From positions 21,201 to 85,200 of the IMG/VR virus record IMGVR_UViG_3300044591_001745: 64,000 nucleotides of DNA. One strand, 5' to 3'. The notes under the pieces are model-generated. The model had not been told where the DNA came from and made no database searches. It saw only the letters and a list, made by a program, of their open reading frames with translations. The first letter of the stretch is position 1; every line of letters begins with the position of its first letter. The position numbers were made by a program, and so were the translations under genes. Positions 63,130-63,222 of the stretch are shown one piece after another. This stretch comes from a virus.

Positions 63130-63222
63130 AGCAAATGGTGTGCCATTCGTGTTTGGCATGGTATTTGCATATAGCAAACGGTGTGCCAGATACATTTTTA
63201 TTTTTATGGTATAGTATTTGCT
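63130..63222. promoter_or_regulatory. Array of four sigma54 (-24/-12) boxes in alternating orientation
   Basis: TGGCACACCATTTGCT (-), TGGCATGGTATTTGCA (+), TGGCACACCGTTTGCT (-), TGGTATAGTATTTGCT (+); all have GG-N10-GC spacing. Confidence 0.75.

Follow-up and report, generated by a model that had tools for sequence, protein, structure and literature searches.

Among the bacterial sigma factors, sigma-54 is the one that binds DNA and then awaits an ATPase activator: the sigma-54 holoenzyme forms a stable closed complex on its sites and stays silent until the activator acts. The consensus of these sites is TGGCACG-N4-TTGCW. Here, we describe a cluster of four boxes of this type, arranged on alternating strands, in a 64,000-nucleotide (nt) stretch of viral DNA (positions 21,201 to 85,200 of the IMG/VR virus record IMGVR_UViG_3300044591_001745; this whole stretch is called the window), and compare it with related and unrelated phages. 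Sigma-54 binding sites as such are an element of an already known kind; new are the protein-anchored sample of relatives, the lineage-specific dyads set against an invariant box, and the examples in cultured Pseudomonas phages.

In Escherichia coli, chromatin immunoprecipitation with sequencing (ChIP-seq) found the sigma-54 holoenzyme bound to its sites but inactive, irrespective of growth condition (PMC4591121). The development of Pseudomonas phage YuA depends on host sigma-54 (PMC5053324) and a sigma-54-like YuA promoter has been reported (PMC10914365; the YuA work is that of Ceyssens et al. 2008). In the GenBank record of YuA, three cloned fragments located before late genes are annotated as "high activity, -24/-12 consensus". 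YuA was the only phage using sigma-54 that we found in the sigma-54/phage literature, where we came across no account of phage sigma-54 boxes in clusters or mirrored pairs. Two phage proteins, Xp10 P7 and T7 Ocr, are described as inhibitors of the sigma-54 holoenzyme. Finally, the PeSL cassettes of T4-type phages mediate cassette shuffling (Arbiol et al. 2010, PMC2839356).

The boxes of the window, including one outlying copy, are as follows.

63130-63145, minus strand: box 1, TGGCACACCATTTGCT, TGGCAC-N5-TTGCT, an exact match to the pattern; points left into dyad B (described below)
63154-63169, plus strand: box 2, TGGCATGGTATTTGCA, exact match; back-to-back with box 1 and face-to-face with box 3
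63173-63188, minus strand: box 3, TGGCACACCGTTTGCT, exact match; pairs with box 2
63207-63222, plus strand: box 4, TGGTATAGTATTTGCT, exact match of the TGGTAT variant; same direction as the next gene
61952-61967, minus strand: decayed sigma-54-type box with one mismatch (TTCGC for TTTGC); aligns base for base with a perfect box of relative L006

A pattern scan confirmed what an earlier note on this DNA, made from the sequence alone, had claimed: the four alternating-strand boxes all fit TGGYAY-N5-TTGCW, and the GG-N10-GC spacing is present in 4/4. The GG and GC doublets, 10 nt apart within TGGCAC-N5-TTGCW, are those of a sigma-54 -24/-12 promoter. Boxes 2 and 3 together make a 35-bp palindrome-like pair, TGGCA-N5-TTTGC-N5-GCAAA-N5-TGCCA. 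The sigma-70 promoter that the note had placed 36 nt past the array is indeed there (TTGACA at 63259-63264, 12/12 consensus match); the distance from the start of box 4 to its -35 hexamer is 52 nt, and the next start codon lies 96 nt beyond box 4. Equally, the minus-strand boxes lack a target gene, as the note had it, since no minus-strand open reading frame (ORF) starts downstream of boxes 1 and 3. The array as a whole thus does not have the gene-upstream, co-oriented position of a sigma-54 promoter, boxes 1 and 3 facing no ORF; boxes 2 and 4 point to the gene that follows.

The window contains four exact matches to TGGYAY-N5-TTGCW, all at 63130-63222, where 0.34 would be expected by chance, and none of 100 shuffles of the 64-kb window reached four or more. 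The whole 85,200-bp record has the same four boxes only, and the reversed-pattern control gave none. Matches with one mismatch barely exceed chance (16 against 9.5 expected, with 16 reached in 3 of 100 shuffles). Two weaker copies had been pointed out as well, and one of them held up: the box at 61952-61967 is aligned to a perfect box in L006 and is therefore a decayed or variant orthologue. The other, at 61833-61848 (plus strand), has two mismatches and lies within a stretch that is not alignable to L006. Box 1 is overlapped by a hairpin of terminator type, with 8 pairs and a T-rich tail (plus strand, 63123-63146); this hairpin is not seen in the relatives.

Relatives were picked via the 109-residue protein encoded upstream of the array and not via the motif, which gave 148 viral stretches, of which 79 loci (250,344 b) were kept. 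These protein-chosen loci contain 179 exact boxes, and the reversed pattern is absent. When the spacer was varied from 1 to 10 nt, N=5 gave the 179 boxes and each of the other lengths (N=1-4 and N=6-10) gave 0-8. At least one box is present in 64/79 loci, and relative L050 has the identical -,+,-,+ array at the same spot as the window. In the orthologous boxes of L006, L007 and L050 (box 2 included), TGGCA and TTTGC are fixed and the five spacer bases vary; in a diverged contig (three runs), box 1 is, among the differences listed, altered only in its spacer, at 63137 and 63140, and the contig also differs between boxes 1 and 2. The bases at sites left free in the pattern were counted as well. 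Position 6 is a pyrimidine in 32/37 family boxes and in 57/58 boxes of unrelated phages, position 7 a purine in 36/37 and 53/58, respectively; by this count the free positions agree with the sigma-54 consensus. The motif and its exact 5-nt spacing are, to judge from these comparisons, under selection. The earlier note had made its case depend on the GG-N10-GC spacing being kept in related phages, and it is kept, N=5 being strict.

We favour the reading that the boxes are orientation-independent docking sites for the host sigma-54 holoenzyme in a boundary module of the early gene cassettes, and put its probability at roughly 0.45. The holoenzyme binds stably and is silent without an activator, and on this ground the boxes are read as docking sites that work in either orientation. 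Host sigma-54 holoenzyme would bind the boxes within a boundary module that recurs in the block of early host-takeover genes; the docked enzyme would be held just upstream of the early promoter, poised and not constitutively firing, and a face-to-face pair would give one enzyme two mutually exclusive seats. We infer that sigma-54 is the reader, that the complexes stay closed or mostly silent and that the effect is local to boundary and promoter. A motif that is constant across unrelated phages, together with the lineage-specific dyads that stand beside it, would fit a conserved host reader with a phage-specific partner.

The orientation of the boxes was determined after the 79 loci had been oriented by the marker gene; the neighbouring early genes were taken to lie on the same strand, as they do in the window, in L006, in L007 and in G004, a complete relative of 151.3 kb. 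Among 148 distinct boxes, 88 (about 59%) oppose the early genes and 60 run with them. G004 has 8 boxes, all between 108.6 and 128.7 kb, and in this region 27/28 sigma-70-type promoter matches are forward and 6/8 boxes backward. The same place is occupied by either box orientation in different relatives. The two commonest arrangements of neighbours are face-to-face (10 cases, at 18-20 nt) and back-to-back (7 cases, at 23-33 nt). In the relatives, reverse boxes cluster 47-49 and 80 nt before the next -35 hexamer, forward boxes 52-53 nt before it (13 boxes). That these are not ordinary promoters, as had been suggested, is supported by the 88/148 boxes opposing the early genes and by the overlapping pairs, which are nearly absent from bacteria (see below); the notion of a loading platform also fares well, variable orientation and overlapping pairs being in line with docking. 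G004 also carries 26 transfer RNA (tRNA) genes in two clusters at 118,077-127,675 (L020, 77-9675), in the early/middle region.

Mirrored boxes are not restricted to this family. The face-to-face pair with a 5-nt centre (35 bp, the pattern of boxes 2 and 3) was found in 12 other viral contigs, about half of which are unrelated phages with a locus G+C content (GC) of 28-55% and 3-22 boxes per locus; some of the unrelated loci have regular +,-,+,-,+ arrays with an 18/20-bp pitch. The pair with a 4-nt centre occurs in at least 120 viral stretches, and the 80 loci kept (GC 30-68%) contain 315 boxes against 3 in the reversed control. Five large records have 7-24 boxes each, clustered within a few kilobases, with reversed controls of 0. 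Overall, the motif is common to unrelated phages with a locus GC of 28-68%. In 596 Gb of bacterial and archaeal genomes, the 5-nt-centre pair gave 2 matches, one of which looks coding and is therefore considered a chance match; the size of the viral collection is unspecified, so that this contrast between viruses and bacteria carries no enrichment factor.

Alternating arrays at a pitch of 18-20 bp resemble cooperative operator arrays, and TGCCA-AAA-TGGCA dyads stand beside the box in distant relatives. One might thus think of a reader other than sigma-54, a phage or another host DNA-binding protein, perhaps a dimer on the TTGC/GCAA and TGCCA/TGGCA palindromes of the alternating array, and the likeness to sigma-54 sites would be coincidence or mimicry. 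We consider this quite unlikely: the same motif is found in unrelated phages across that whole GC range with no common protein in the flanks examined, the free positions follow the sigma-54 consensus and the spacing is exactly that of sigma-54. Moreover, psbA and WhiB were found in 0/30 mirrored-pair records, and in 0/5 family records. psbA marks cyanophages and WhiB actinophages, whose hosts are without sigma-54; as many cyanophages and actinophages are without these genes, the absence of the markers is weak support for sigma-54-bearing hosts. No protein common to the window family and the unrelated box-bearing loci was present in the flanks examined, which does not speak against a common reader encoded elsewhere.

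The boxes are embedded in a module, which in the window has the following parts.

62607-62936, plus strand: upstream early gene, 109 residues; relatives in 148 viral stretches
62970-63025: two CCCCCC-N-GGGGG hairpins after the upstream gene, the end of the cassette; direct repeat D2, inverted repeat I1
63036-63064: dyad A, 11-7-11, half-site near CGTAAGTNCTT; direct repeat D1, inverted repeat I2
63089-63117: dyad B, 53 bp after dyad A (the spacing of D1); ends 12 nt before box 1
63229-63244: short dyad between box 4 and the promoter; degenerate copy of the relatives' CCTTAC-N6-GTAAGG hairpin
63259-63286, plus strand: sigma-70 early promoter, TTGACA, 16-nt spacer, TG-extended TATAAT; 12/12
63318-63452, plus strand: small early ORF of 44 residues behind the sigma-70 promoter; no family match

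A second 12/12 sigma-70 promoter is found at 63460. In the window and the relatives the module opens with a small gene's stop codon, followed by C-run/G-run hairpins and a pair of 11-7-11 dyads spaced 53 bp from each other; then come 1-4 sigma-54 boxes, an A/T-rich stretch or short hairpin, the sigma-70 promoter and a variable small gene. The half-site near CGTAAGTNCTT recurs in the close relatives L005, L007, L011, L012 and L015; it is missing from L006 and from the unrelated box-bearing phages. More distant relatives have twin CTGCCAAAATGGCAG palindromes at the position of the dyads (L071, L081, L083, L086 and L095, at about 1880-2040), and a sigma-54 box is retained beside the differing palindrome. 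Since the sequence of the dyads is swapped from relative to relative and the box stays, the dyads follow the phage lineage and the box does not. By appearance, the twin dyads look like sites of a lineage-specific dimeric protein. They are also present without boxes. A reading of the two dyads as hairpin RNA was dropped because the central positions mismatch while the sequence of the half-site is conserved. The spot of box 4 is taken in many relatives by a TGGCAYG half-box without the -12 GC. In the modules of L007, L011, L005 and L012 a conserved half-box TGGCAYGAAATTATATT, a -24 element without the -12 GC, takes the place of box 4, and the sigma-70 -35 hexamer follows about 45 nt further on.

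The same module precedes different genes in different relatives and is repeated within genomes, and metagenome contigs align only in part to the window, jumping between module copies or into unlike sequence. As PeSL cassettes mediate such shuffling (PMC2839356), the boxes could be regarded as repeated homology for cassette shuffling with no binding role at all. This homology-only reading is already disfavoured, and we hold it to be highly improbable: the spacers vary while the cores are fixed, and selection for homology would not spare the 5-nt spacers from conservation, nor would unrelated phages then come to share one 16-mer.

Among the mirrored-pair loci, one is 100% identical to the Pseudomonas phage vB_PaeM_C2-10_Ab02 (NC_042113; Pakpunavirus), which has 12 exact boxes against 0 in the control. 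Each terminal repeat has four of these; a forward box stands by itself at 80808, and the boxes at 80960 (plus) and 80978 (minus) form a face-to-face pair. This pair lies within a 620-bp gene-free gap before the TTGACA-type promoter of ORF143. The stretch recurs in conserved form in 135 Pseudomonas phage records, PaP1, K5, K8 and PaoP5 among them, and partly in phages of P. putida and P. plecoglossicida. Across the Pseudomonas phages the spacers vary and the left box is sometimes lost; the right, reverse box persists together with a 70-nt GC-rich element, which has a weak consensus fold of -6 kcal/mol (from six coordinate ranges, one of which, HJ01, was misplaced). The same reverse box and 70-nt element are found in PAK_P3 (Nankokuvirus) at 50797, and a forward box at 50946 stands 69 nt ahead of the annotated promoter_06 (51015). 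P. aeruginosa, the host of these phages, has rpoN; the idea of sigma-54 as reader presupposes such a host. The boxes go unmentioned in the excerpted PAK_P3, PAK_P4 and cappable-seq literature (PMC4933390, PMC5563952, PMC10914365).

The gap of the Pseudomonas phages may serve as an origin of replication or as a control hub of another kind. The region after the forward box at 80808 is a candidate for a sigma-54-driven small RNA, which would be convergent with the reverse box 170 nt away. Three further features of these phages were noted. Behind the box at 80808 come about 100 conserved bases, which end in a GGGG...CCCC hairpin with a T-rich tail (80,808-80,940; L220, 1009-1140). The terminal repeat of NC_042113 is 1165 bp long (L221, 1-1165), and 2 of its 4 boxes are inside an annotated HNH endonuclease gene. 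Iteron-like direct repeats occur in the gaps, of the GACAGATTTTCACAG type and of the GTTAGCA or GTAGCACGTCA type (L220, 760-1000; L227, 6560-6760).

Could the boxes simply be true enhancer-dependent sigma-54 promoters, fired by a bacterial enhancer-binding protein (bEBP) of the host or by an unrecognised phage protein on the dyads? Forward boxes would then be conditional second promoters in tandem with sigma-70, reverse boxes would give non-coding or antisense RNA that runs across the last part of the early gene before them, for instance for early shut-off, and the face-to-face pair would be an either/or bidirectional promoter. The perfect consensus and the co-oriented box 4, 96 nt before the next start codon, speak for this, as does the position of the two dyads about 10-120 bp upstream of box 2, which is enhancer-like. 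In other phages the three high-activity -24/-12 fragments of YuA, together with its dependence on host sigma-54, the candidate small RNA behind the Pakpunavirus forward box, and the many antisense RNAs produced by PAK_P3 and PAK_P4 (PMC4933390, PMC5563952) point in the same direction. Yet the sigma-54 activator domain PF00158 was found in 0/36 phage records (0/1, 0/5 and 0/30 in the three sets, with 13 records at least 90% complete), and the sigma-54 DNA-binding domain PF04552 in 0/5 records. The dyads are lineage-specific and occur also without boxes. The orientation flips freely at the same spot; the overlapping pairs are mutually exclusive and practically never found in bacteria, which are rich in real sigma-54 promoters; and the reverse boxes of the window family have no conserved terminator after them. 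Taken together, we consider activator-dependent promoters a serious alternative that is nevertheless unlikely.

The idea put first in the earlier note was that of a sponge. On this reading, many sites on replicating genomes would titrate sigma-54 or its holoenzyme off host promoters and thereby shut sigma-54-dependent stress, motility, pilus or RNA-repair regulons. The sites need neither gene, orientation nor activator, their number varies freely among relatives as a dosage effect predicts, some unrelated phages have 22-24 boxes, and binding of the holoenzyme is independent of the growth condition (PMC4591121). Set against this, the record has only 4 sites and the complete relative G004 only 8, and a pitch of 18-20 bp wastes capacity for a ligand of the size of the holoenzyme. 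The sites hold preferred places in a promoter-proximal module and are not found just anywhere, and in the Pseudomonas phages the 70-nt element next to the reverse box is conserved along with it. A sponge is decidedly unlikely in our view; a local role in the promoter-proximal module, or activator-dependent firing, is at least as likely as such a global function.

Several points weigh against docking sites of local effect. Within about 1.5 kb of the marker gene, 15/79 related loci are without a box, and any single site is therefore dispensable. The preferred distances to the promoter may simply be inherited, the module copies sharing an ancestor. Holoenzyme cannot occupy all boxes at once when these are 18-20 bp apart. 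In E. coli, intragenic sites occupied by the sigma-54 holoenzyme did not repress the overlapping genes in the excerpted report (PMC4591121); silent complexes there had no measurable effect, so that a local effect of the boxes is not guaranteed, and the roadblock that had also been considered for the array has a published negative precedent. Last, the window phage has no assigned host, and its nearest cultured terminases, 24-28% identical, are those of Bacillus siphoviruses and of Microcystis phage MaeS.

If docking of sigma-54 holoenzyme is taken one step further, it is tempting to speculate that two-fold-symmetric and alternating arrangements of sigma-54 sites arose in many unrelated phage lineages as a regulatory device proper to phages, one not used by bacteria. 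Such an element would capture silent polymerase either way round at early-gene boundaries and control regions. It might then start transcription in both directions from a poised state, giving for example antisense RNAs for shut-off or R-loop primers for origins, or else it might act as a trap by which the host's sigma-54-dependent responses are disarmed. This generalization is tentative and, on balance, doubtful. If true, a widespread phage element would represent a new viral way to plug into or to neutralise host transcription. As the layout is found in well-studied, therapeutic-type P. aeruginosa phages, for which rpoN mutants, RNA sequencing (RNA-seq) and cappable-seq data exist, the identity and effect of the reader are directly testable.

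The virus record has an estimated completeness of 54%. The array sits 778 b from the end of the record, which breaks in a (CA)n run; as metagenome contigs stop at this microsatellite of ~27 units (63906-63960), the assembly probably broke there and the early region continues past the window. Genes from 94 to 59160 are on the minus strand and include ORFs of 5109 and 2488 residues and a terminase-like gene. From 59572 onwards genes are on the plus strand, GlmS-like and GNAT genes first, then small ORFs without family match behind consensus promoters. A sigma-70-family factor with a weak region-2 match is encoded at 58456-59160 (minus strand) and is conserved in relatives; the gene is divergent from the GlmS-like and GNAT pair (59572-61763, plus strand).

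The DNA was found in lake-water or freshwater DNA metagenomes; among the sequencing runs listed for it, none is of RNA. The portal has no match to cultured phages and the capsid only one of 22%, to Bacillus phage G; blastn of 62900-63500 against cultured phages gave no match, and no relative of the 106-residue ORF at 62234-62554 was confirmed. In Rfam scans, 61700-64000 and the Pakpunavirus regions had chance-level matches only. The window has neither tRNA nor transfer-messenger RNA (tmRNA) genes. The cyanobacterial HIP1 octamer is absent from the window, which, at an expectation of only 0.2, is uninformative on the host. A Bacteroidota host was rejected because the early promoters are of the TTGACA/TATAAT type. 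CGATCG occurs 0 times in the window against 7.3 by base composition (less once CpG depletion is counted), and TCGA and ACGT are at 0.41-0.44 of expectation; this deficit may reflect avoidance of restriction sites or of CpG.

How do the boxes compare with the described systems? With bacterial sigma-54 promoters and sites they share the bipartite motif, the GG-N10-GC spacing and the preferences at flanking positions. At the bacterial sites the holoenzyme has been shown to sit silently under any condition (PMC4591121). The boxes described here are carried by viruses, about 59% of them oppose the nearby genes and no activator gene was found in the phage records examined; they form overlapping face-to-face pairs and alternating arrays, which are almost never seen in bacteria. 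YuA provides the precedent of a phage that uses host sigma-54. In contrast to the window, its three -24/-12 fragments are single and co-oriented with late structural genes, and they belong to a phage with 0 matches to the strict TGGYAY-N5-TTGCW-type pattern; the boxes of the window are clustered, on alternating strands and in the early region.

The module as a whole is reminiscent of PeSL cassettes. Both are repeated intergenic modules in which a strong sigma-70 early promoter and stem-loops with G/C runs precede small orphan genes, and both serve as seams for gene shuffling, for the window module by comparative evidence only: the module is followed by different genes, and contigs join module copies. 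However, the window module has twin dyads and sigma-54 boxes in addition, and sigma-54 has 0 occurrences in the excerpted PeSL paper (PMC2839356). The window phage is also not a T4-type myovirus; it has a giant tape-measure-like gene, its portal is unmatched and its terminase is distantly related to those of siphoviruses (24-28% to those of Bacillus siphoviruses and the Microcystis phage). Finally, the Pakpunavirus and Nankokuvirus phages (C2-10_Ab02, PaP1, K5/K8, PAK_P3) are unrelated to the window phage and have other flanking repeats, but they share its layout: a face-to-face pair or a single reverse box together with a forward box, placed in a gene-free gap of 500-620 bp just upstream of a sigma-70 promoter.

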